Below, one piece after another: positions 1 through 47,731 of a stretch of 47,731 nucleotides of DNA. The stretch is from sequence record PZ445407.1; one strand, 5' to 3'. The DNA comes from a phage. The notes beneath the pieces are model-generated. The model was not told the origin of the DNA. It was given only the letters and a program-made list of their open reading frames with translations, and did no database searches. The stretch's first letter is position 1, and the number at the start of each line of letters is the position of its first letter. Both the position numbers and the translations under genes were made by a program.

Positions 1-41
1 GCACGAATTGCCAAACACAAAAGCCACGGATGGCGTATAGT
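1..41 (+). promoter_or_regulatory. palindrome-type promoter (half-palindrome completed by window end) for 72..449
   Basis: gcacgaattgcca + 22 bp + TATAGT (36..41); near-identical to copy at 43335. Confidence 0.5.
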
Positions 42-71
42 CACTTCACACAAACGAGAGGAGTTAAACAA

Positions 72-449
72 ATGACAAACACTTCAAAGGCTGTATATAT
101 TGGGAACAATGATGACAAGTATTGTGGATTCACTCCGGGAAATGAATACGACGTTTGCGTTCTTGATGATGGATTTTTGGGGGTTTACGATGATGATGAT
201 ATTCACCGTTGCATTAAAAACGGAACGTTACACGAGTTCAAGCTCGATTGTGAGGATGGTCATTTTGTAACTGAGACTGAGTGCGAAGTCATGCCGCCTA
301 TCGACAATAAAAAGCCAGAGCTTAGATATTACATAAATGGTCATGAGGTTGACATGGTTGAGTTCGGAAATGTGCGCTATACTGTAGAGCAGCTTAATGA
401 GGATGGCGTAAAATGCGACACAATCAAGTTCGAAGTAAAATTCGAGTAA
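72..449 (+). CDS. hypothetical protein, moron-like; paralog of 12195..12569
   Basis: ATG at 72 in frame with ORF 30..449, RBS gagg upstream; preceded by palindrome promoter; C-terminus (KFEVKFE) matches 12195..12569 (DFEVSFE). Confidence 0.5.
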   Translation: MTNTSKAVYIGNNDDKYCGFTPGNEYDVCVLDDGFLGVYDDDDIHRCIKNGTLHEFKLDCEDGHFVTETECEVMPPIDNKKPELRYYINGHEVDMVEFGNVRYTVEQLNEDGVKCDTIKFEVKFE

Positions 450-470: not shown

Positions 471-494
471 AGCCCCTGTTATGGGGCTTTTTAT
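471..494 (+). terminator. rho-independent terminator
   Basis: hairpin agcccc-tgttat-ggggct + T-run. Confidence 0.5.
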
Positions 495-505
495 TGGAGA
501 AAAAC

Positions 506-1768
506 ATGGTCAAGACAGACAGCTACGCCAATATCTTTCTCGGCGGCAGTGATGGTAGTGAGATTTACGGGAGTTTGCAGAATCAGGCGCCCACAATTCT
601 GGCCTCGCTTTATGCTGACAATGCTCTGGTGCGTCGAATTATCGACACAATACCGGAGACAGCATTAGCGGCAGGATTCCACATTGATGGTATTGATGAT
701 GAATCTGAATTCTGGTCTCACTGGGACGACCTGGAGCTAACAAAACACATCAATGAAGCCTGGTCATGGGCTAGATTGTTCGGTGGGTCTGCAATTGTTG
801 CTATCGTTAAGGACAATAGGGCGCTAACAAGTCCGGTCAGAGAAGGTGCCGAGCTTGAAACGGTTCGCGTTTACGACCGCACACAAGTAAAAGTACAAAC
901 CCGAGAGGAGAACCCACGCAACTCGCGCTTTGGTAAGCCGCTAACCTATCGCATCACAACAAACGAAAGCGATATGTTCTATGATGTGCATTACACCCGC
1001 ATTCACATCATTGACGGAGAGCGAGTCCCTAACGTAATGCGCCGTCAGAATGATGGATGGGGTAGAAGTGTTCTTTCTAGTGATATTCTTGACTCAATCA
1101 AGGATTACACGAACTGTGAACGACTTGCCACGCAATTACTGAAGCGTAAGCAGCAGGCGGTCTGGAAGGCGAAAGGGCTTGCTGAGTTGTGTGATGACAG
1201 CGAAGGATTTGGCGCGGCTCGATTACGACTTGCTCAGGTTGATAACAATAGTGGCGTGGGTCAGGCAATTGGCATTGACGCAGAATCTGAAGAGTACAGT
1301 GTTCTAAACTCTGATATCGGCGGGATTGATGCGTTTCTGGATAAGAAGTTTGACCGAATCGTTGCTCTGAGCGGCATTCATGAAATCATCCTGAAGAACA
1401 AGAACGTTGGCGGTGTATCTTCAAGCCAGAATACGGCGCTTGAGACATTCCACAAGCTGGTTGACCGCAAGCGTAATGCTGAGCTTCTGCCTATTCTTGA
1501 GTTCTTAATCCCGTTCATTGTTAATGTAGAAGAATGGTCAGTAGAGTTTAATCCTTTAGCGCAGGAGTCGAGCAAGGATAAAGCAGAGATTCTGGAGAAG
1601 AACGTAAACAGCATTGCGGCACTAATTGCAGCTGGCGCTATGGATACTAACGAGGCTCGTGATACACTACGAACTATCGCACCAGAGATTAAGATTGGTG
1701 ATGGAAATATCGAACCTGAAGAACCATCTAAGGAAGTAATCGCGACGACAGAGGAATCTAATGAATGA
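506..1768 (+). CDS. portal protein (putative)
   Basis: ~420 aa ORF immediately downstream of the terminase genes across the junction; ATG 506 preceded by ggag; position-based call. Confidence 0.55.
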   Translation: MVKTDSYANIFLGGSDGSEIYGSLQNQAPTILASLYADNALVRRIIDTIPETALAAGFHIDGIDDESEFWSHWDDLELTKHINEAWSWARLFGGSAIVAIVKDNRALTSPVREGAELETVRVYDRTQVKVQTREENPRNSRFGKPLTYRITTNESDMFYDVHYTRIHIIDGERVPNVMRRQNDGWGRSVLSSDILDSIKDYTNCERLATQLLKRKQQAVWKAKGLAELCDDSEGFGAARLRLAQVDNNSGVGQAIGIDAESEEYSVLNSDIGGIDAFLDKKFDRIVALSGIHEIILKNKNVGGVSSSQNTALETFHKLVDRKRNAELLPILEFLIPFIVNVEEWSVEFNPLAQESSKDKAEILEKNVNSIAALIAAGAMDTNEARDTLRTIAPEIKIGDGNIEPEEPSKEVIATTEESNE

Positions 1769-6203: not shown

Positions 6204-6633
6204 GAATATTGGAAGCGTGGTTACGTTTGAAAAATCTATTGCTGACTGGATTGACAGAGCGGAGGATGGTTTTGGGATTGTGGTAGCCAATACGGTTATC
6301 AAGACAGCCAGCGCAATTGTTGACCTTTCTCCTGTCGACACTGGTAGGTTTAAGGCTAACTGGCAAATCACCGCAAACTCGCCAGCCCAGCAGTCACTAA
6401 ACGAGTACGACCAGACTGGCGGTCAGACAAAAACATACCTCGCCAGACAGGCGAGAGCGGTTGCCAACTCAAAAGCTACAAGTGTTATTTATATTACCAA
6501 CCGACTTGACTACGCGGCTGATCTTGAGTACGGCGCATCAAACCAGGCTCCATCCGGTGTTTTAGGTGTGGTGCAAGCAAGGTTGGGTAGGTATTTTCAA
6601 GAGGCAGTGGAGGAGGCGCGTCGTGCAATATGA
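6196..6633 (+). CDS. tail completion / neck protein (putative)
   Basis: ATG 6196 overlapping upstream stop; position in module. Confidence 0.4.
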   Translation: MARNIGSVVTFEKSIADWIDRAEDGFGIVVANTVIKTASAIVDLSPVDTGRFKANWQITANSPAQQSLNEYDQTGGQTKTYLARQARAVANSKATSVIYITNRLDYAADLEYGASNQAPSGVLGVVQARLGRYFQEAVEEARRAI

Positions 6634-7024
6634 ATTATCATTAGCAGCAAGGAAGTTCGTCAACGATTTGCTGGTAAGTGAATTTCCAGTCAGGTATCCA
6701 GTTGCTTGGGAGAATGCTGCATTTACCCCTCCTGCAGACGGATCAATCTGGCTTAAGTACGACTACACAGAGGCAGACACCGTAACCTATGGGCTTAGCC
6801 GAAAGTGCAAATACTACGTAGGCATGGTGCAGATTTCTGTTTTCTTCAGTCCTGGCACTGGAATTGATAAGCCGAGACAAATCGCTAATCAATTGGCAGA
6901 ATCTATCGTTGATGGTACAATACTTGACAGCGGGACCATTTATGAGTCTGGAGTTGTTAACCCGGTTATCAAATCCAAGTCTGGGTGGTTTATCCCGGTT
7001 CGTTTTTATGTTCGTCTAGACTAA
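6623..7024 (+). CDS. neck / tail terminator protein (putative), GTG start
   Basis: GTG 6623 preceded by aggagg; start codon uncertain. Confidence 0.35.
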   Translation: MQYELSLAARKFVNDLLVSEFPVRYPVAWENAAFTPPADGSIWLKYDYTEADTVTYGLSRKCKYYVGMVQISVFFSPGTGIDKPRQIANQLAESIVDGTILDSGTIYESGVVNPVIKSKSGWFIPVRFYVRLD

Positions 7025-7729: not shown

Positions 7730-7772
7730 TAGCATTTTTTGATAAAGCATTAATTTAATCTTCCTGTATAGT
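7730..7772 (+). promoter_or_regulatory. palindrome-type promoter (TAGCA-N5-TGATA, 22-bp spacer, -10 TATAGT)
   Basis: Direct read; leader TACCTCATCGAAACGAAA. Confidence 0.55.
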
Positions 7773-12629: not shown

Positions 12630-13385
12630 ATGTTAAGTCCAAAGTTTGAAAATCAGTTGCAAAGCCTTTTCCCTGGCGAGATTGTAACTCTAATCCAGGT
12701 TGACGGCACGTCCTTCGGAAGTCTCGTTTACAATTTCCACAATGAGAACATTTCATACACACCTGAAGAAATCATGCTAGCCCAAATGAATGGTGAGCCA
12801 CTACCAGAGAAAACCATCACCTTTCGTGGTGAAGAGTACGGCCCAAGACCTTTTGGAATCTCGGGCATAAATATGACCTCTGACGGCAAGGCAAACAAGG
12901 TTACGCTAACAGTATCAAACGTAGACCAGCGCATTAGCGCATTGATTCGCACATACAACGGACTTGTTAAAGCTAAGGTTACCATCTGGATTACTACGCG
13001 AGATAACATCAATGAAGACGGAAGCATTGCTGATGGGGATTATCGCAGATTCGTTTACTTCATTGAGCGACCAAAGCAGGTTGACTACAAGACGGCATCA
13101 TTTGAGCTAAGCAGCCCGATGGATATGGATGGTATTTACATTCCTGCTCGACTTGTTCAGTCTGTTTGCTATTTCGCCTCTAGGGGTTGGTATCGTAGCG
13201 GTAATGGTTGCGCTTATGCTGGAAACAGATACTTCAACAAGGATGACGAGCCAGTATCAGACCCTTCATTAGACTTCTGCGCAGGAACTGTTAACAGTTG
13301 CAAGCTTAGATTTGGTGAGAATAATCAGTTAGATTTCGGCGGTTGCGCTGCAGCAAGCCTTCAGGCTAAAGCTAATCAATCATAG
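12630..13385 (+). CDS. minor tail protein (lambda L-like, putative)
   Basis: Cys-cluster near C-terminus (CYF..GNGCAYAG..CAGTVNSC..GGC); RBS context identical to portal (ttattggagaaaa). Confidence 0.55.
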   Translation: MLSPKFENQLQSLFPGEIVTLIQVDGTSFGSLVYNFHNENISYTPEEIMLAQMNGEPLPEKTITFRGEEYGPRPFGISGINMTSDGKANKVTLTVSNVDQRISALIRTYNGLVKAKVTIWITTRDNINEDGSIADGDYRRFVYFIERPKQVDYKTASFELSSPMDMDGIYIPARLVQSVCYFASRGWYRSGNGCAYAGNRYFNKDDEPVSDPSLDFCAGTVNSCKLRFGENNQLDFGGCAAASLQAKANQS

Positions 13386-13452: not shown

Positions 13453-13935
13453 ATGAATTGGAATGATTACTTTAGATATGAAAGCGGCAACCTATACTGG
13501 TTGACAAAGAGAAAGGGAGTTAGAGCAAGTGGACTTGCCGGCTATTCAAGGAAGGACGGTTATGTTCAGGTTAGAGTTTCAGGAAAAGCCTTCCTTGCGC
13601 ACAGAATTATATGGGAAATGCATAATGGATTGATACCAGAAGGCATGGAGATAGATCACATAAACCACAACCCAGGAGACAATTCAATCGAAAATCTTAG
13701 GGTCGTCACATGCAAAGACAATCAAATGAATAGACCAATCAGGCTGTTGAGTAAAAGCGGCTTTAACGGTGTCACTTGGCACAAAAAATCAAAAAAATGG
13801 CAGGCAACGGCAAGAGTTAATGGAAAAACAAGATACTTCGGTCTGTTTGATGATCCAATCGATGCCTCAAAGGCAATGCGTTCATTTTTTATGGAAAATA
13901 ATTTCCATCCAAATCATGGGGAAAAACGATGTTAA
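13453..13935 (+). CDS. HNH homing endonuclease
   Basis: H-N-H motif region (GMEIDHINHNPGDNSIENLRVVTCKDNQ); free-standing with own promoter inside tail module. Confidence 0.7.
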   Translation: MNWNDYFRYESGNLYWLTKRKGVRASGLAGYSRKDGYVQVRVSGKAFLAHRIIWEMHNGLIPEGMEIDHINHNPGDNSIENLRVVTCKDNQMNRPIRLLSKSGFNGVTWHKKSKKWQATARVNGKTRYFGLFDDPIDASKAMRSFFMENNFHPNHGEKRC

Positions 13936-22963: not shown

Positions 22964-22990
22964 AGCCCCTTTCGGGGCTTTTTTTATTTT
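22964..22990. terminator. bidirectional terminator between SSB-like gene and convergent tail fiber
   Basis: agcccc-tttc-ggggct + TTTTTTT. Confidence 0.6.
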
Positions 22991-25098
22991 GCAATCCAGG
23001 TGCCTGGCGTTCCTGATGATGTGCAAATCCACTTTTCAATAAATGATGTTCCGCTTGGGTTTATGTTGTAAACAATATCACCAGCAACCCAGGTTAATGT
23101 TGTCGGAGCCGCTCCACCATAAGCTGTCGCCCTTGATTTGTTGTCAGTTCTGGTTAAAGATCCAAGTATGCTTGGGTTTGTTGCTGTATCGAATCTATTT
23201 CCATAGAAAGTTAAATATGGAAGCCCATCACCATACATCCTAACTGATGTGTCCGTAGTATTGGCTGATTCATTTCCAATTATAACCATACCTTGTGAAT
23301 TCCATGTTATATTTCTATAAAAACCATCAAAATAACAATTAATTATTGAGTTTTTTGATGTGTTTGCATCTATAGCAACATCCGTAGTTGATTCCCCTCC
23401 ATGAGTGAATCTACAGCCTTTGTATCTTACATTTACACCTCCAAAACCAACTTTTGAACACTCAGCTACAATGTCTGATATCTCAACTCCACCACCTCCA
23501 GAGAAAGAGAAAAGCTGCCCAACATTTGTCGCAGATGAAGAGCTAAATGAGCAGTTGGTCGCGTTATAAAAAGAAACGCATGGAGTTGCGAGCCTATTTC
23601 CAATCTGCTTAAGAACAAAGTTAGAGCAAACTATGTTAGACCCCTGTATTGAAACCATTGCGCTATTGGGTTGCGAGTTCCTGTAAATTGATGTGTTTGA
23701 TAAGTTAATGCTATTTAATCCACCCTCCTCGTTGTAAACATAAACGTCTATTTTTTGGTTGTTTGAAGACTGAACTCCAGATATCAATATTGATGATGAA
23801 CTGGATACATCATCATTCTGCGAGTAAACCCTTAATCCATACTCTGTATTGTTGTTTGTCGTGACATTGGAAACAATTGACCCAACACATCGCCACAACA
23901 AAATACCCCTACCAAGATTGTTAGCTGGAGCAACACCAGTGTTACCATTGTAGTTAAACTTTCCTGATAGTATTGAGTTATTGAAACCATCACGATCTTG
24001 AATTCCGCAAACTAGATTATTAAAAGACCTTGCTTTATCAATGATCATGTTGCGACATGATACCATCCTTAATCCATCTTGTGATCCCTTAGTTATGATG
24101 CAACCATCAACAAGTCCATACTCGCAGTTTTCCAATAGAATCATGTGTCCGTTGCCTGACGTGTTATCAAGACCTGTCCCAACAAATCTACCTCCAATTA
24201 TAGAGAAGTTGTTTGCGTAGCTAGCTCTCCATGCCGCAGTAACCAATTCACTTGTTAGCTGAATAGTTGAAGTGCCAAGCACTATATAATGCCCTGATCT
24301 GATCGTAACCTGCTTGCTTTGAATGTAGGTTCCAGCCGGAAAATAAACATTTAGAGAGGAGTTAAGCGCTGAGATAATGGCGTCAGAATCATCAGTAACA
24401 CCATCACCCTTTGCGCCAAAGTCCTTAACACTAACGAATCCCCTTGATGATATTTCACCCTTTGAGTAAACATCAAGGTTCTGCCTTGCTAGTGGCTTGT
24501 CTGTTAAGTCTGAGAGCGCCAAATCTTTTCTTAGTAGGTTCTGCGTGTCAAGTGACGCCGCATAATCTGCCGCCTCCTGCGCTGAAGTTGCTGCCGCGTC
24601 TTTGGCTGATAGTGCGCTGGTTGCACTTGCTGCCGCTGCATTCTTATCGGTGGTCACTTGGGCGGCATCATTTGCAACCTGTGCCCCAATAGAAACAACA
24701 TCACCATGCTGCGCGTCTACCTGAGCTACCTTTGATTCAAAATCCGCAGAGTCAAAGTTATTGAAAGCATCAACAGCATCTGCAATCTCAGTTTCACGTG
24801 ACTGATAGTAACGCAATGTTTCGGCAACATCCTGAGCTAAACCCTGAACGGTAATCCCATCATGAGCAAGGATCGCGTAACCAGTCCCAGCAGGAACAGT
24901 TTCAGAATTAGGATTATAAACATTAATCTGCGTATCGCTGATAATTTCTGAGATGGTGTAAATTTGTACTGGTTCAGTTTTAAATACAATTGTGGCGCCT
25001 GCCCTGATAAGAGTAAGAGGCGCCTTCCATGTCGTTCCTACGCCAGTCACCTCGCCATTTTCTACTAGTGACGCTGTTCCTAAGTCATAAATTGCCAT
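22984..25098 (-). CDS. tail fiber / tailspike with pectate-lyase-like beta-helix domain
   Basis: Motif VKDFGAKGDGVTDDSDAI followed by Asn/Ser/Gly-rich beta-helix-like repeats; Ala-rich coiled-coil N-terminal part. Confidence 0.65.
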   Translation of the reverse strand: MAIYDLGTASLVENGEVTGVGTTWKAPLTLIRAGATIVFKTEPVQIYTISEIISDTQINVYNPNSETVPAGTGYAILAHDGITVQGLAQDVAETLRYYQSRETEIADAVDAFNNFDSADFESKVAQVDAQHGDVVSIGAQVANDAAQVTTDKNAAAASATSALSAKDAAATSAQEAADYAASLDTQNLLRKDLALSDLTDKPLARQNLDVYSKGEISSRGFVSVKDFGAKGDGVTDDSDAIISALNSSLNVYFPAGTYIQSKQVTIRSGHYIVLGTSTIQLTSELVTAAWRASYANNFSIIGGRFVGTGLDNTSGNGHMILLENCEYGLVDGCIITKGSQDGLRMVSCRNMIIDKARSFNNLVCGIQDRDGFNNSILSGKFNYNGNTGVAPANNLGRGILLWRCVGSIVSNVTTNNNTEYGLRVYSQNDDVSSSSSILISGVQSSNNQKIDVYVYNEEGGLNSINLSNTSIYRNSQPNSAMVSIQGSNIVCSNFVLKQIGNRLATPCVSFYNATNCSFSSSSATNVGQLFSFSGGGGVEISDIVAECSKVGFGGVNVRYKGCRFTHGGESTTDVAIDANTSKNSIINCYFDGFYRNITWNSQGMVIIGNESANTTDTSVRMYGDGLPYLTFYGNRFDTATNPSILGSLTRTDNKSRATAYGGAAPTTLTWVAGDIVYNINPSGTSFIEKWICTSSGTPGTWIAK

Positions 25099-25120: not shown

Positions 25121-25135
25121 TAGCACAGATTGCTA
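25121..25135 (-). promoter_or_regulatory. palindrome TAGCA cagat TGCTA only ~22 nt upstream of tail fiber start codon (operator-like position)
   Basis: Perfect palindrome but no room for the usual spacer, -10 and leader. Confidence 0.4.
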
Positions 25136-26428: not shown

Positions 26429-26914
26429 TCATCCATGAGATATGTCTTTAGCTTTTCGTGCTGCTTCGTTAGCAGCCTTAATTTTACGCCATGATCGACA
26501 TTCTGGTTTGGTTGCTAACTCGGATTCAGTAACCACACGCAGCATGTGACGCTTTTTGCAACGCAGCGTAAGAGGCTTTCCATTGCCGTCGAATTGCAGA
26601 TCTGGTCGGCAGAATGTAGCGCGAAAACCTTCTCCGGTTCGTTTGTAGTAGTTGTGAGATAGCTGAGCGCCACGTGCAGAGATCATGCCACGCTTAAACC
26701 ACTCTTCTACAGCCTGCGGCGTCACCTTTAACTGCTTTGCGATATTCGCCTTTGTGCCGAAGAAATCAAGGAGCATCTCAAGCCGCGCGCGTAGCCCAGC
26801 CCTTACCTCATCTTTCAAAACGTAGTAACCTGAAGGTCGTTTCCGCTGCTTTTTATCTTCAGTGCGGATGGTTCCGTTATTGCCGTTAGTGGTTCGCTTA
26901 TCAACTGCATTCAT
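26429..26914 (-). CDS. putative HTH DNA-binding regulator
   Basis: Segment IAKQLKVTPQAVEEWFKRGMIS resembles a helix-turn-helix; highly basic protein; divergent from helicase promoter. Confidence 0.45.
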   Translation of the reverse strand: MNAVDKRTTNGNNGTIRTEDKKQRKRPSGYYVLKDEVRAGLRARLEMLLDFFGTKANIAKQLKVTPQAVEEWFKRGMISARGAQLSHNYYKRTGEGFRATFCRPDLQFDGNGKPLTLRCKKRHMLRVVTESELATKPECRSWRKIKAANEAARKAKDISHG

Positions 26915-27015: not shown

Positions 27016-29010
27016 ATGTTGCCTATCGAGAAGCTGGTTGCCAACTTTGATAAAGAGAGAATTAAACAGATTCAGAAAGATTACCAGTTTGGCGAGATAA
27101 CACCTTACGAGTTCCAGTGCGTTACATTTGATGCAATTGGGAAAGCCATTGGCAAGTATGAGGCTCCATTTATCGCAGACCTTTCCGTGTCTGCGGGCAA
27201 GACAATAATTCTGGCTATGATTGGTAAGCGCATGGAGCAATTGGGGTTGCCTTATATGGTGCTCTCTCGCCAGTCAGAGATAATCAGCCAGAACTCAGAA
27301 GAGCTTCGCAACTTCGGCATCCGTAACAGCGTCTATTGCGCTGGTCTTAACGTTAAATCAGTTTACTACCCAACCATAGTTGCTAGTGAGGGTACGGCAG
27401 CCAACGGCTTGTTTAAGGGGCTTGGTGATTATGTTCCGGCAGTTATCGCTATCGATGAATGCCACATGGTCGATCACATGGATATCGTGGAAGCTGAAGA
27501 GAACGAAGAAACATTTGAGCAAATGAGCACAAAGAAAGGTGAGATGGTATTCAAGGATGGCGTTAACACTGGTTTGATTGGTACAGGTCGCGCACAATAC
27601 ACGCTAATAATTACCGAAATGAAACGTCGTTGCCGTGAGAAATACGGGCGGGAGCTTCGCATCTTTGGCCTTACTGGCAGCCCATATCGTAACAACGATC
27701 ATATCGTCGTTAGTAATCCAAACATCCGTGGTTTCTGGCGCAAGACGGTAATACAAGTACCAACCAATTACCTTGTTGATTTGGGGTTCGTTGTGCCAAC
27801 TGTTTACGGTGAGGTTGGCGATTTGGGTTACGATCTTAGTGAGTTTGCGCCAGATGGAAGTGACGGAATTAAGGATTTTAGCAAAAAAGAAATGGATGCG
27901 ATGGAGGAGAAAATCCACCAAAACCAATCAATGACTCAAAAGATTATGCAATTTGCCGCAAAGTTCATGGAGACTCGCAACGCAGCGCTTGTGACATGCT
28001 CTGGTAAGCGTCACTGTGAAGAAGCGGCAGCGGCGCTTCCTGAGGGTGTGACCTGGGCTATAGTAACCGACTCTACAGGTGAGAAAAAGCGCCGTGAGAT
28101 TCTGGCTGACGCTTCAGAAGGTAAGTATAAGTTCATCTTTCAGATTGGTTGCCTCACAACCGGAGTGAACGTCCCACCGTGGGATACATCAATCATTCTG
28201 CGCAAGGTTGGTAGCATCACGTTACTTATTCAGCTTTTGGGTCGAGGCATGCGAATTCTTAAGAAGAAGCATAAAGAAATGGGCATGGTTAAGGACGACC
28301 ACGTGGTTCTAGACTTCGCTGGAACACTTGACGACATGGCAGAGTTGTACTTTGACCCAATCATAGAGGAGGTGCAGGACCAGAAGTTTAAATCATCACG
28401 CAAGGGAAACGATGAGCCGAGGGTTTGCCCGGCCTGCAGCTATGAGAACTCACCATTCGCTCGTCGATGCAATAACGTAATTGACGGGAGGCGTTGTGAA
28501 CATTTTTTTAAATTTCGCTTATGTGAAGATATAGAGGACCACCAGACAAAAGTTACTGTTAAGAAAGGTTGTGGTGAGAAGAATGATATTGCCGCTAAAA
28601 ACTGCCGCTGCTGCGGAGAAATGCTTATTGACCCTAACGCAAAGTTGTCTGGAAAGATGTATCGAAAAGGTGACTGGTTGAGAGTTTACGGATTCAGTAT
28701 TGGGTTAACTAAAAACCAAGCCGGAATCGTTGCTCGCTATGAAATAATGGCTCACAGCGGGGATAGGTTTGTTGCTTACGAAACTTTCTTCCCAGAGAGT
28801 GACCATCGCGTTTGTTCCGTTAAGTGGAAGGCATTTTGCCAGGCGCACATCCAGAACAAAACAGAAGCATTTCGCATCGGAAGACTTCGAAACGCCAAAA
28901 TGATTATGACTAACGCAATTCAATTTCGTGAGCCAATGCGAGTGACTCATAGAAAGAACCAGAAGGGGCAGGACATTATTGCAAACAAATCTTTTACTAT
29001 GGATGATTGA
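27016..29010 (+). CDS. DExH-box helicase
   Basis: Motif II DECH (AIDECHMVDH), motif VI-like QLLGRGMR, C-terminal Cys clusters. Confidence 0.75.
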   Translation: MLPIEKLVANFDKERIKQIQKDYQFGEITPYEFQCVTFDAIGKAIGKYEAPFIADLSVSAGKTIILAMIGKRMEQLGLPYMVLSRQSEIISQNSEELRNFGIRNSVYCAGLNVKSVYYPTIVASEGTAANGLFKGLGDYVPAVIAIDECHMVDHMDIVEAEENEETFEQMSTKKGEMVFKDGVNTGLIGTGRAQYTLIITEMKRRCREKYGRELRIFGLTGSPYRNNDHIVVSNPNIRGFWRKTVIQVPTNYLVDLGFVVPTVYGEVGDLGYDLSEFAPDGSDGIKDFSKKEMDAMEEKIHQNQSMTQKIMQFAAKFMETRNAALVTCSGKRHCEEAAAALPEGVTWAIVTDSTGEKKRREILADASEGKYKFIFQIGCLTTGVNVPPWDTSIILRKVGSITLLIQLLGRGMRILKKKHKEMGMVKDDHVVLDFAGTLDDMAELYFDPIIEEVQDQKFKSSRKGNDEPRVCPACSYENSPFARRCNNVIDGRRCEHFFKFRLCEDIEDHQTKVTVKKGCGEKNDIAAKNCRCCGEMLIDPNAKLSGKMYRKGDWLRVYGFSIGLTKNQAGIVARYEIMAHSGDRFVAYETFFPESDHRVCSVKWKAFCQAHIQNKTEAFRIGRLRNAKMIMTNAIQFREPMRVTHRKNQKGQDIIANKSFTMDD

Positions 29011-29011
29011 T

Positions 29012-29431
29012 ATGAATATTACAGACAAAGTTGATTACATTGAGTTTTACCCGGGCCCGGTTAAGTCATGCCCCAAAGAGGACGACGAACAGATCTTTTG
29101 CTCTGATTGGGTTAAGTACCATTATCCTCAGATTATCTATTGGCATACCGTTAATGAGGGGAAGAAATCAATGTGCGCAGCCAGAAAGGATGCAGCAAAA
29201 GGCCTCCTTAAAGGCGTATCAGACTGCCTATTTCTAATACCTGAACCATTGCGAGGAAGGTATCCATTTGGCGCAATAGAGCTAAAGAGGGCAGGGAAAA
29301 CGCAGGCTAGTCCAGTCAGCGAAGATCAGAAGGCATTCCTGAAGAGCGTAAGAGAATCAGGCGGCTTCTCGGCTGTGGCCTACGGTCGTGAAGGTTTTCT
29401 TGCGGCGTTCAGAGAAATGATTTCAAAATAG
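29012..29431 (+). CDS. VRR-NUC-like nuclease (putative)
   Basis: D/E/K residues in DCLFLIPEP...GAIELK arrangement; start choice 29003 or 29012. Confidence 0.45.
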   Translation: MNITDKVDYIEFYPGPVKSCPKEDDEQIFCSDWVKYHYPQIIYWHTVNEGKKSMCAARKDAAKGLLKGVSDCLFLIPEPLRGRYPFGAIELKRAGKTQASPVSEDQKAFLKSVRESGGFSAVAYGREGFLAAFREMISK

Positions 29432-36860: not shown

Positions 36861-37096
36861 TTCACCTCATTAAAGGTTGCAATACCAGGGATAAACATTC
36901 CAACCTTCCAGCCCGCAATGGCAATCCATCCAGAGTCGTGCTTGTGCGGTCGCTCAGCGCCATTAATCACCCACTCGTTCGGGATTGTCTTGCCGTTAAT
37001 GATTAGCGGCTCAGCGTCGTATGCAGAGCCTTTGACGAATGGTGTTAATACCTTCTTGTCTGTACTTGTAATAACGTTAGTGCAGCGAATTTTCAT
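36857..37096 (-). CDS. hypothetical protein (start MKIRCTNV)
   Basis: RBS gagga before ATG 37096. Confidence 0.35.
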   Translation of the reverse strand: MKIRCTNVITSTDKKVLTPFVKGSAYDAEPLIINGKTIPNEWVINGAERPHKHDSGWIAIAGWKVGMFIPGIATFNEVK

Positions 37097-37106
37097 ATCC
37101 AAATCC

Positions 37107-37286
37107 TCAAATAAATGGTAGGCATTCGTCACAGCCAAGTCCATCACAGCACAGGAATTCATCTTCTGACTGGAATTGCTTAGCCAAATCTATATCCAAC
37201 TTTCCTCGCACCACAAGTTCCGTGTAATCCTCGTTAAGCCCAATCAGTGCGCATTCTTGGCGTAACTCATCTTTATCAATCTTCAT
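37107..37286 (-). CDS. hypothetical protein (60 aa; Cys-rich C-terminus CCDGLGCDEC)
   Basis: ATG 37286 behind minus-strand promoter/leader of the conserved type. Confidence 0.35.
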   Translation of the reverse strand: MKIDKDELRQECALIGLNEDYTELVVRGKLDIDLAKQFQSEDEFLCCDGLGCDECLPFI

Positions 37287-37313
37287 ATCCACCCCCTCGT
37301 TGTTGATGAGTTG

Positions 37314-37357
37314 ACTATACCCTCGCCAGACCATAACGTCATTAACAAAAAGTGCTA
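37314..37357 (-). promoter_or_regulatory. palindrome-type promoter on minus strand for the 33655..37286 accessory operon
   Basis: Reverse complement: TAGCA ctttt TGTTA + ~22 bp + TATAGT + leader ...CATCAACAACGAGGGGG. Confidence 0.5.
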
Positions 37358-37373
37358 TTCGTCAGATTTATGG

Positions 37374-37458
37374 ATTGTTGCAGATATTGCAATGATTCAC
37401 ATGATTATTGCACATATAGCAATATTGCTTCAGATGCAATGATGTTTTTGATTGTTGC
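37374..37458. promoter_or_regulatory. cluster of ATTGCA/TGCAAT repeats flanked by direct repeat GATTGTTGC (operator-like)
   Basis: At least six TTGC(A) units within 85 bp of a non-coding region. Confidence 0.3.
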
Positions 37459-37602
37459 GAAAAGTGAAATGAAGGGGTGAGTGAGCGAATGATAGATGGA
37501 TGGACTACCATACAAGTTGATTTTGATTCTTCTTGAGCAACTTTGCGCATACGCGTTATAAAGGTTATGCCATGTAGATGAAATCTCACTCCGCAGGAAT
37601 CG

Positions 37603-37700
37603 TGTACGCCTATCACGCAGGATTACGCAATGGTTACGTAATAATATCTATATATATCAACCTTTTAGTGTTATTATTATTATTATTATTATATACGTGT
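37603..37700. repeat. iteron/AT-rich repeat element copy B (same core, (TTA)7)
   Basis: Direct repeat of copy A; second short conserved block TTACATTGAGCTATA at 37848..37869 vs 20429..20449. Confidence 0.6.
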
Positions 37701-37753
37701 ATATAGTGTAGATAGTGGATATTGGATATTGCGATAGTTTTCTATGATTTTTT

Positions 37754-37786
37754 CCTACACTTGTAGGAATGTGACTACACTGTAGG
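37754..37786. promoter_or_regulatory. two tandem palindromic sites CCTACA-(N1-2)-TGTAGG-AAT (operator-like)
   Basis: cctacacttgtaggaat and ctacactgtaggaat read directly. Confidence 0.35.
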
Positions 37787-37917
37787 AATAAATAGGCATA
37801 TATGGGCCACCCCTCCATAAAAACTTATCTACAATCTGTACACGGCTTTACATTGAGCTATATCTGGGGTTGGTAGCTGAAAAGCGTAAATAAATTGAAT
37901 TCAACCACAAATAACGC

Positions 37918-37946
37918 TTGATAACATGTAACCTCGATGATATTAT
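37918..37946 (+). promoter_or_regulatory. sigma70-like promoter (-35 TTGATA, 17 bp, -10 TATTAT) for 37987..38508
   Basis: Hexamers read directly. Confidence 0.45.
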
Positions 37947-37986
37947 GCACCCATATTAACGAAGGCAACAATCAGGAGTAATATCT

Positions 37987-44640: not shown

Positions 44641-44718
44641 GCTCTGCTAGCTCAATTGGATAGCAGCAACGACCTTCTAAGTCGTAGGTTACTGGTTCGA
44701 ATCCAGTGCGGAGCGCCA
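44641..44718 (+). tRNA. tRNA-Arg (anticodon UCU), CCA encoded
   Basis: Acceptor stem GCTCTGC/GCGGAGC, anticodon stem ACGAC/GTCGT with loop CTTCTAA, canonical T-arm GGTTCGAATCC, 3' GCCA. Confidence 0.8.
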
Positions 44719-45555: not shown

Positions 45556-46062
45556 ATGAGCAAAGCAGCATTAAAGATGGGTGAGGGAAATTTCAAGGCG
45601 CTTTACAACAAGAAGTATGGCGATATTGCGATGGTGGCTATTAACCGCAAGTACACGCCTGAGGAAGTTTTCGATTTCGCTGTTCGATACTTCTCCTGGG
45701 CTGAGACTGAGGCAATCAAAGCAATTGAGACGGCGGCATTCCAGGGTGTGGTTAGTGAGAGCCTTGTGCACAAGCCTCGAGTATTCACATTAACCGGGCT
45801 GGCGCTCTTTATGGGTGTTAATATCAATAGATTCGCACGCTGGCGTACTGAGGCTGGTTACTCTGATGTGATGGAATTCATTGATAACGTAATCTACGAG
45901 CAGAAATACCAGCTTGGCGTTGCTGGTATCATCAACTCCACCATCGTGGGGAAAGAATTGGGAATTGATAAGCCGCAGGAGATTACCATCAGCAACAACT
46001 CCACAGCCAACGACGTTGATAGCATGAAGGAAGCGCTGGAATCTGTTATTAGTAAGCTGTGA
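45556..46062 (+). CDS. terminase small subunit (putative)
   Basis: ~168 aa gene directly upstream of large terminase; RBS aaggagg. Confidence 0.55.
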   Translation: MSKAALKMGEGNFKALYNKKYGDIAMVAINRKYTPEEVFDFAVRYFSWAETEAIKAIETAAFQGVVSESLVHKPRVFTLTGLALFMGVNINRFARWRTEAGYSDVMEFIDNVIYEQKYQLGVAGIINSTIVGKELGIDKPQEITISNNSTANDVDSMKEALESVISKL

Positions 46063-46080
46063 TAAAACGAGGGTATAACA

Positions 46081-46176
46081 ATGAAAGGCTTGATTAAACT
46101 ATTCATGATGTATTATCTATTAACTAGCGTATCTCTTTGTGTCTTTATGTTGGTGGTTAAATTATGGCTAATTTAG
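46081..46176 (+). CDS. hydrophobic micro-ORF (31 aa) overlapping terminase large start
   Basis: Hand-translated; RBS gaggg. Confidence 0.2.
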   Translation: MKGLIKLFMMYYLLTSVSLCVFMLVVKLWLI

Positions 46177-47731
46177 TATGGGAAGAAATGACCATTCAGG
46201 AAAAGATGGCCGTCAAGGCGATATCAGAACACAGCTTCGAGGGCTTTCTTCGTTGCTGGTTCCAAATCACACAGGGCGAGCGATACATCCCTAACTGGCA
46301 TCACAAATATCTATGCAGAATCATTGACGAGATTATTGCAGGTGAGCGCAAGGACACCATCATCAACATAGCGCCGGGCAGCGGAAAGACAGAAATAGCT
46401 TCAATTCACTTTCCTGCCTACTCTATGGTTAAGCTGAAGAAGGTGCGGAACCTTAATATCTCCTTTGCCGACTCATTGGTTAAGCGTAACTCCAAGCGCG
46501 TACGTGACCTTATCAAATCTCAAGAATTTCAATCACTCTGGCCATGCAAGTTTGGTACGTGCAAAGACGATGAGCTTCAGGTTCTTGACGAGAGTGGCAA
46601 GGTTAGATTTGAGTCAATATCAAAGGCGGCTGGAGGTCAGATTACAGGCGCTCGAGGTGGCTATATAACAGAAACATACAGCGGGGCAGTTCTATTAGAT
46701 GATTTCGACAAGCCGGCCGACATGCTATCTCAGGTCTACCGAACTAACAATCACGTAATGCTTAAGAACACGATTCGCTCACGTCGAGCTAGTTCTGTAA
46801 AAGGCAAGGCGACACCAATCATTTCGATACAGCAGCGATTGCACGTCAATGACTCAACCTGGTTCATGATGGAAGGAGGGATGGGTATTGATTTCGATCT
46901 GATTAAGATACCAGCATTAGTTACTGAGGATTACATCGATTCACTTCCTGACTGGATTAAAGAGCAGTTTGCGGAAGACGTTTTGAGTGGTGAGTACATT
47001 GAGCGAGATGGGGTAAAGTACTATAGCTACTTCCCTAAAAAGGAATCCGTGCACGACCTAGTTGCGATGTGGGATAGTGACCCGTACACTTTCCTTAGCC
47101 AGTATCAACAGGAACCTGTAGCTCTCGGCGGCAATCTGATTAACGTGGATTGGTTCCAGCGCCTTAGTGACACATTCAGACCTCCAGCTAAGTATGATTA
47201 TCGATTCATCACGGCTGATACGGCGATGACAACTAAAAGCTATAGTGACTTCTCTGTGTTGCAACTTTGGGGCTATAAGGATGCCAGGATTTACCTTCTT
47301 GACCAACGCAGAGGCAAATGGGAGGCACCAGAGTTACAGGCTGAATTGCTTGAGTTTGAGAAGTCCGCAAGGGCCACCAGTCAGCAAAATGGAATTCTTC
47401 GAAAGATTATCGTCGAGAAGAAAGCATCTGGTATCGGTCTTATTCAATCAGCAAGTCGAGTTATGCGAACGCCAGTCGAGCCATACGTTCCGGATAACGA
47501 CAAGCTGACCAGGGTAATGAGTGCGCTACCGCAGATTAAGGCCGGTAACGTCGTTCTTCCAGGGTCAGCGACATGGCTAAATGGTTTGCTTACGGAGATT
47601 GCATCTTTCACAGCAGACGACTCACACAAGCATGACGACCAAATTGACTGCCTAACAATGGCAATCAACCTGGTACTTAACATTGCAGATGACCCTAAAT
47701 CGCGGATGTTACGCCTTGCAGGAATTAAATA
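46164..47731 (+). CDS. terminase large subunit; CDS wraps the window junction (stop TAG = 47730, 47731 and base 1)
   Basis: Walker A-like NIAPGSGKTE, Asp-rich nuclease-type C-terminal region; open to window end. Confidence 0.8.
   Translation, partial: MANLVWEEMTIQEKMAVKAISEHSFEGFLRCWFQITQGERYIPNWHHKYLCRIIDEIIAGERKDTIINIAPGSGKTEIASIHFPAYSMVKLKKVRNLNISFADSLVKRNSKRVRDLIKSQEFQSLWPCKFGTCKDDELQVLDESGKVRFESISKAAGGQITGARGGYITETYSGAVLLDDFDKPADMLSQVYRTNNHVMLKNTIRSRRASSVKGKATPIISIQQRLHVNDSTWFMMEGGMGIDFDLIKIPALVTEDYIDSLPDWIKEQFAEDVLSGEYIERDGVKYYSYFPKKESVHDLVAMWDSDPYTFLSQYQQEPVALGGNLINVDWFQRLSDTFRPPAKYDYRFITADTAMTTKSYSDFSVLQLWGYKDARIYLLDQRRGKWEAPELQAELLEFEKSARATSQQNGILRKIIVEKKASGIGLIQSASRVMRTPVEPYVPDNDKLTRVMSALPQIKAGNVVLPGSATWLNGLLTEIASFTADDSHKHDDQIDCLTMAINLVLNIADDPKSRMLRLAGIK

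Follow-up and report, generated by a model that had tools for sequence, protein, structure and literature searches.

The two ends of the phage DNA analyzed here (sequence record PZ445407.1, a stretch of 47,731 nt that we call the window) are contiguous. They join directly, with no base missing or duplicated. The window very probably holds the whole genome, without redundancy, of a virulent T1-like coliphage of the Braunvirinae, with headful packaging from a pac site, and its circular assembly would have been opened inside the stop codon of the large terminase gene (terL).

Contiguity of the window ends

The window finishes with ...GCAGGAATTAAATA, the last bases being AAATA, and starts with GCACGAATTGCCAAACAC..., which opens with GCACGAATTGCCA. 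The gene at its 3' end is terL (46164..47731, + strand), with matches to Pfam Terminase_6C (E=3.9e-10) and PHROG 38 (E=2.9e-109). After a stop at 46158, its frame stays open up to the last base, 47731, and its ATG is found at 46164. Once base 1 is added, terL has 522 codons and its product (522 aa) has the C-terminus ...RMLRLAGIK, as the last two bases, TA, and base 1, a G, form the stop codon TAG. A previous sequence-only reading had described both the frame still open at the last base and the stop completed by base 1, and our analysis bears it out on both points. The column of the terL stop is identical in Rtp, IME253, EC3a, and T145P1, as seen in a multiple alignment. Taken by itself, the stop codon is weak evidence of contiguity, since an A or a G after TA creates a stop in about 50% of cases by chance.

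The join also restores a 15 nt motif. Positions 47730-47731 followed by 1-13 read TAGCACGAATTGCCA, then come a 22 nt spacer (14..35) and TATAGT (36-41, + strand), a -10-like hexamer which lies 22 nt past the 15-mer and corresponds to GCCACGGATGGCGTATA(G/T)T in relatives. The same reading had reported here a TAGCA-N5-TGCCA palindrome, the 22 nt spacer, and TATAGT at 36..41. All of them are present, with one correction: The TGCCA arm has a mismatch, the perfect palindrome being TAGCA-N5-TGCTA. Relatives carry TGCTA at the site of the joint, while the junction copy has TGCCA. The TA at 47730-47731 begins both the palindrome and the terL stop codon. A second case of this overlap is the ORF 28979..29431, whose TAG supplies the first three nucleotides of the motif copy at 29429. 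Stop codons lying within the motif are therefore nothing unusual in this genome.

The other copies of the motif provide an internal test of the joint. The 15-mer family (TAGCA-N5-TGCCA, TGCTA, and similar sequences) has 18 occurrences, compared with 3.7 expected, and none of 100 shuffled sequences reaches 18. In a strand-specific scan of the circularised sequence, a TAnnnT hexamer is found exactly at +22 after the 15-mer in 16 oriented copies, while any other offset has at most one occurrence. We have prepared a weight matrix from 15 of the copies, leaving the junction copy out of the training. The matrix spans 69 nt: 4 nt upstream, the 15-mer, the spacer, the hexamer, and the leader. With 66.3 bits, the junction copy ranks 4th among 95,462 positions on both strands, and it outscores every leave-one-out score of the 15 training copies. 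When 1–3 nt are removed at either end, or 1–2 nt are inserted at the joint, the best score is at most 53 bits. The exact join is thus better than all the 1–3 nt indel variants tested, which argues that no base is missing or duplicated.

Related phages lead to the same result. The region of the terminase genes (terS and terL) has 82–87% nucleotide identity to Rtp-like coliphages, Msk included. We have constructed an artificial junction with the last 1,200 nt and the first 1,200 nt of the window (2,400 nt). It gives one unbroken alignment to four Veterinaerplatzvirus T145P1 records, with about 84% identity, and 70 records cover at least 80% of it. The alignment is split in two for some relatives because the small ORF that follows the joint is variable. 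A multiple alignment of the 300 nt that surround the joint, made with T145P1, EC3a, Rtp, and IME253, has no gaps at the joint, and the stop codon, the 15-mer (TAGCACnAATTGCTA in the relatives), and GCCACGGATGGCGTATA(G/T)T are matched column by column. Whole-genome BLAST shows the complete window as a single cyclic rotation of the T145P1, A110b, and Rtp maps. Position 47731|1 corresponds to 8427|8428 in Rtp and to 2118|2119 in T145P1, adjacent coordinates in both, and comparison with these three genomes shows a complete gene order all round the circle. The contiguity between end and start, which had been proposed from the letters of the window, is therefore confirmed by records of relatives that were opened elsewhere, by the gap-free alignment, and by the adjacent coordinates.

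No terminal direct repeat was found in the window. The exact junction gave no match either as a 40-mer in viral contigs or as a 30-mer in metagenome and genome contigs, and an exact-sequence protein look-up of the small ORF, terS, and portal products found no record. Two lines of evidence therefore carry the case for contiguity: relatives with about 85% identity and the internal test with the motif.

The genes around the joint are those of a packaging region. The small terminase gene terS (45556..46062, + strand) belongs to the P22 gp3 family (Pfam GP3_package, E=5.1e-13; PHROG 606, E=6.8e-57), and a tRNA-Arg gene with anticodon TCT (44641-44718) lies upstream, as in EC3a and OzMSK. The first gene 3' of the joint is a small ORF of 125 aa (72..449, + strand), a homologue of rtp22 and Ec3a_18 with a match to PHROG 14592, virion structural protein (E=1.2e-34). 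The annotation of the relatives also places it between terL and the portal gene. It is followed by a hairpin with a T-run that resembles an intrinsic terminator (471..488, + strand), and a terminator is annotated at the equivalent site in vB_EcoS_CEB_EC3a. The portal protein gene comes next (506..1768, + strand; Pfam Phage_portal_3, E=4e-69), and in relatives the portal also follows terL and the small ORF. A sequence search with TerL against solved structures gave no match at E<=1, so this protein could not be set beside a structurally characterised headful terminase.

The 21 nt repeat and the promoter-like module

The 15 nt palindrome is the core of a 21 nt repeat already published for the Drexlerviridae. 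It was described in phage TLS as a direct repeat with consensus aaATAGCACnnnTTGnTAAAA, and was also noted in T1, Rtp, and Rogue1 (PMC11447400). TLS has 21 of these sites, which follow the direction of transcription and precede start codons by about 76 nt. Their function was left open, a stoperator, an enhancer-binding site, and an UP-like element having been suggested (PMC11447400). In our case, the first 5 nt of the repeat (AAATA, 47727..47731, + strand) are found at one end of the window and the last 16 nt (GCACGAATTGCCAAAC, 1..16, + strand) at the other. This second part is kept in relatives as TAGCAC(A/T/G)AATTGCTA. The complete junction copy, AAATAGCACGAATTGCCAAAC, matches 16 of the 18 specified positions of the consensus (PMC11447400), is oriented with transcription, and belongs to the 'GAA' subgroup. 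It starts exactly 76 nt before the ATG at 72. Its two deviations from the TLS consensus aaATAGCACnnnTTGnTAAAA are TGCCA for TGCTA and the final C. The TLS paper only gives the distance to start codons, to which we can add a fixed distance of 22 nt to a -10-like hexamer.

The joint thus lies within a promoter-like module, and the small ORF is the first gene after it. Between the hexamer and the ATG at 72 there is a conserved leader, CACTTCACACAAACGAGAGGAG... (42..71, + strand), with a Shine-Dalgarno sequence, and its pattern is common to other modules. The sequence ...CATCnAAACGAnnGAGG... is conserved in the leader after the modules, including the one at the junction. As a whole, the module is about 70 nt long and is formed by aaaTAGCACnnnTTGCTAaa, exactly 22 nt, TATAnT, the conserved leader tacCCCATCnAAACGAnnGAGG, and an ATG. 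Copies are found at 7730, 12122, 20144(-), 21773, 29429, 30270, 35739(-), 36519(-), 39068, 40199, 41569, 42187, 43335, and 47730. Further copies are located at 13383, 32183, 26463(-), and 37357(-).

These modules have no canonical -35 sequence, and a standard sigma-70 scan does not call the junction promoter because no -35 is found at 16–18 nt. If transcription starts about 7 nt past the hexamer, the centre of the palindrome would be near -42. Such a position, without a -35, is the geometry expected of a dimeric activator working with the host RNA polymerase. The fixed spacing to the -10-like hexamer suggests an activator-dependent promoter class. A more specific proposal would be a phage-specific promoter class of the Drexlerviridae, in which a dimeric DNA-binding protein of the phage acts as a class II activator of the host sigma-70 RNA polymerase. 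We consider it a tentative idea, rather doubtful at present.

Two other kinds of promoter were considered and rejected. The motif resembles the sigma-54 sequence TGGCAC-N5-TTGC, but on inspection the GG/GC spacing deviates by 2 nt, with AG in the place of GG. TTGCTA or TTGCCA might be taken as a -35 hexamer, but the 22 nt spacer is outside the 16–18 nt range and the standard scan makes no call.

A candidate for the dimeric activator proposed above, and for a protein binding the TAGCA-N5-TGCTA palindrome, is a helix-turn-helix regulator of 161 aa (26429-26914, - strand), which matches PHROG 2856, transcriptional regulator, and is a homologue of Rtp52 and T1 gp23. Rtp52 is annotated as a putative regulator. 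The module copy at 26463(-) is found inside this regulator gene itself.

One copy of the palindrome has perfect arms, TAGCACAGATTGCTA at 25121-25135, in an atypical context. It adjoins a terminator-like hairpin, and just 22 nt separate it from the downstream ATG of a gene coding for 704 aa (22984-25098, - strand). No -10-like hexamer is found at +22 of this copy on either strand, so it may serve as an operator rather than as part of a promoter.

Related phages and the opening point of the record

By sequence, the window is a complete genome of a T1-like coliphage of the Drexlerviridae (Braunvirinae), about 85–87% identical to known members. Its alignments to T145P1, A110b, and Rtp cover 34–35 kb of the 47.7 kb, at about 74–91% identity and in a single cyclic order. 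The collinear relatives (Escherichia phage Rtp, Rtpvirus, Veterinaerplatzvirus T145P1, Guelphvirus EC3a, Msk/OzMSK, and IME253) show about 80–90% identity over some 72–74% of the window all round the circle. The order terS, terL, small ORF, and portal, the tRNA-Arg gene upstream, and a size of 47,731 nt, within a range of about 44–50 kb, agree with this placement. Rtp-type relatives share this gene order, the sequence formed by the terL stop, the repeat, and the -10 hexamer, and a tRNA-Arg(tct) upstream of terS. In the phage collection, every record stays below 95% identity over the genome, which makes this phage a distinct member at the species or genus level.

Some differences are also found. 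The window has 47.7 kb while the relatives have 44–46 kb, and its early-gene and tail-fibre regions carry mosaic insertions. Rtp has an HNH endonuclease gene between terS and terL (Rtp 6388-6864), whereas the window has a gap of 101 nt (46063-46163). An ORF of 160 aa (13453-13935) is found at the place of the second HNH gene of Rtp (rtp40), and AugustePiccard and JeanPiccard have homing endonucleases near terL and portal. The content of mobile endonucleases clearly differs among relatives. We should also note that two close relatives are labelled 'Campylobacter phage A110b' (UNVERIFIED) and 'Pseudomonas phage PsgS01F'. They are probably coliphage contaminants or have mislabelled hosts.

The window was opened after terL, while the records of the relatives begin at terS or at the Rtp origin. 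If the opening were random, the chance of hitting the terL stop codon would be about 3/47,731 (about 6e-5), which suggests a rotation guided by the annotation. Probably, this rotation was made relative to terL, with an error of one or two positions. As a speculation, the assembly might have been rotated at the low coordinate of a terL on the minus strand, with a mixture of 0- and 1-based indexing, and then reverse-complemented. This route would give exactly an end in '...TA' and a start in 'G...'. A group of 43 relatives from one study and one host (E. coli DSM 12242; MK907226-MK907273), all with a length of 44,219 nt among the matches listed, were deposited in varied rotations and on both strands, so opening points are arbitrary in this family. 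The ends of the window are a matter of bookkeeping, and they are uninformative about physical termini.

Packaging

P22 is the paradigm of headful packaging from a pac site, and its family of small terminases includes the TerS of the window. In the literature on this family of phages, terminal redundancy and circular permutation are attributed to T1-like genomes (PMC4070988). The virion DNA of TLS and T1 yields a submolar pac fragment, with 3–4 processive headfuls and a shift of about 1 kb in each. This restriction evidence corresponds to pac headful packaging with about 1 kb of redundancy per step and partial permutation (PMC11447400). In Msk, which is closely related to the window, PhageTerm finds a forward-strand peak at 36,862, which its authors read as pac headful packaging, with the output class 'type unknown' (PMC8421802). 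No fixed termini were found in KanT1 and OzMSK: The record of KanT1 was oriented by convention, and the assembly of OzMSK was closed into a circle. The PhageTerm results are therefore inconsistent in the family, a peak with 'type unknown' in Msk and no terminus call in OzMSK or KanT1.

The window agrees with this picture. It closes into a circle without a fixed end sequence, as expected for pac headful packaging, and its terminase, with a TerS of the P22 gp3 type, is related to those of phages for which headful packaging has been found experimentally. A fixed end should appear as a terminus-specific, non-contiguous boundary or as an end repeat. What we find is a boundary which is internal and contiguous in relatives and which splits a stop codon. 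A TerS of the gp3 family beside TerL, a circular map, and no evident fixed ends are shared with T1, TLS, and P22. The circular or terminally redundant, headful-packaged genome suggested by the sequence-only reading is supported, and it agrees with the published packaging of T1, TLS, and Msk (PMC11447400, PMC8421802, PMC4070988, PMC13164509). The sequence gives only a circular map, and terminal redundancy and permutation of the virion DNA are inferred from the relatives.

A possible location for the pac site can be suggested. The largest non-coding region of the window (37163..37986, 825 nt, with no strand assigned) separates divergent gene blocks. Both the Rtp and the OzMSK record begin at the equivalent of position 37418, and the PhageTerm peak of Msk maps to about 37508; both sites fall inside this region. 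By this homology, it is a candidate for the pac site and the first packaging cut, which would lie about 10 kb away from the window boundary. In more general terms, we regard it as a candidate pac, origin, or early-control region. In contrast to T1 and TLS, the pac position is transferred here by homology from the PhageTerm peak of Msk and from record conventions. Some features of this region are repeated TTGCA/ATTGC boxes (37368-37472), a (TTA)7 microsatellite (37671-37692), short tandem repeats of TATATAGTG and GATATTG, and inverted and direct repeats of TGTAGGAAT.

The contiguity, the identity of the genes, and the synteny with relatives are results from the window itself, while the relatives and the literature suggest headful packaging, terminally redundant DNA, and a pac region at about 37.4–37.5 kb. 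According to this proposal, the TerS/TerL terminase would cut the virion DNA from concatemers. Packaging would begin at the pac site and run in headfuls slightly longer than one genome. The resulting molecules would be terminally redundant and partly circularly permuted, and for this reason shotgun reads would assemble as a circle. Joining the window ends restores the TAG stop, the 21 nt repeat, and the 22 nt spacing, and these three make up the promoter-like module of the small structural gene.

Circular closure alone does not discriminate between this proposal and a genome with fixed physical ends, either cos or short exact direct terminal repeats, which the assembler had merged into a circle that was later rotated, with no headful packaging involved. 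Such genomes also assemble as circles, and the absence of a PhageTerm terminus type for OzMSK would fit them. Nevertheless, TerS belongs to the pac family of P22 gp3, both close relatives and type phages of the family have experimental or read-based evidence of pac headful packaging, and no terminal direct repeat is left in the window, all of which makes fixed ends very unlikely. Still less probable is a join produced as an artefact of assembly or data handling, one that hides missing or duplicated bases in a genome which would be incomplete or chimeric at this point. In its favour, the collections searched contain no independent copy of the exact junction, but the alignment to four relatives has no gaps and their coordinates are adjacent across the joint. 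Besides, TerL ends at the usual C-terminus of the family, the exact join gives the highest module score among the 1–3 nt indels tested, and the gene order is complete round the circle.

The boundary, at a conserved palindrome and at the end of a gene, is not in a random place, which could lead one to take the window ends as true virion termini, with a terminase cut inside the TAGCA palindrome at the end of terL and a contiguity due to coincidence. We give this explanation hardly any credit, the least of all those considered. The boundary sequence is internal and uninterrupted in records of relatives opened elsewhere. With more than 15 copies and an association with promoters, the palindrome cannot serve as a unique signal for packaging. 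The Msk peak and the origins of Rtp and OzMSK are about 10 kb away, near 37.4–37.5 kb. Finally, a cut in the stop codon of an essential gene could only be tolerated with terminal redundancy, which leads again to a circular map.

In summary, pac headful packaging of a circularly mapping genome is the reading we prefer, and the window should be annotated as circular. A linear annotation shows terL as truncated, overlooks one promoter-like module, and leaves the first gene without its upstream region. Circular closure is ordinary and expected, it is already known for the Drexlerviridae, and the junction itself holds no novelty. The knowledge of packaging is unchanged: In this family, ends are set by pac-initiated headful packaging, as already documented.
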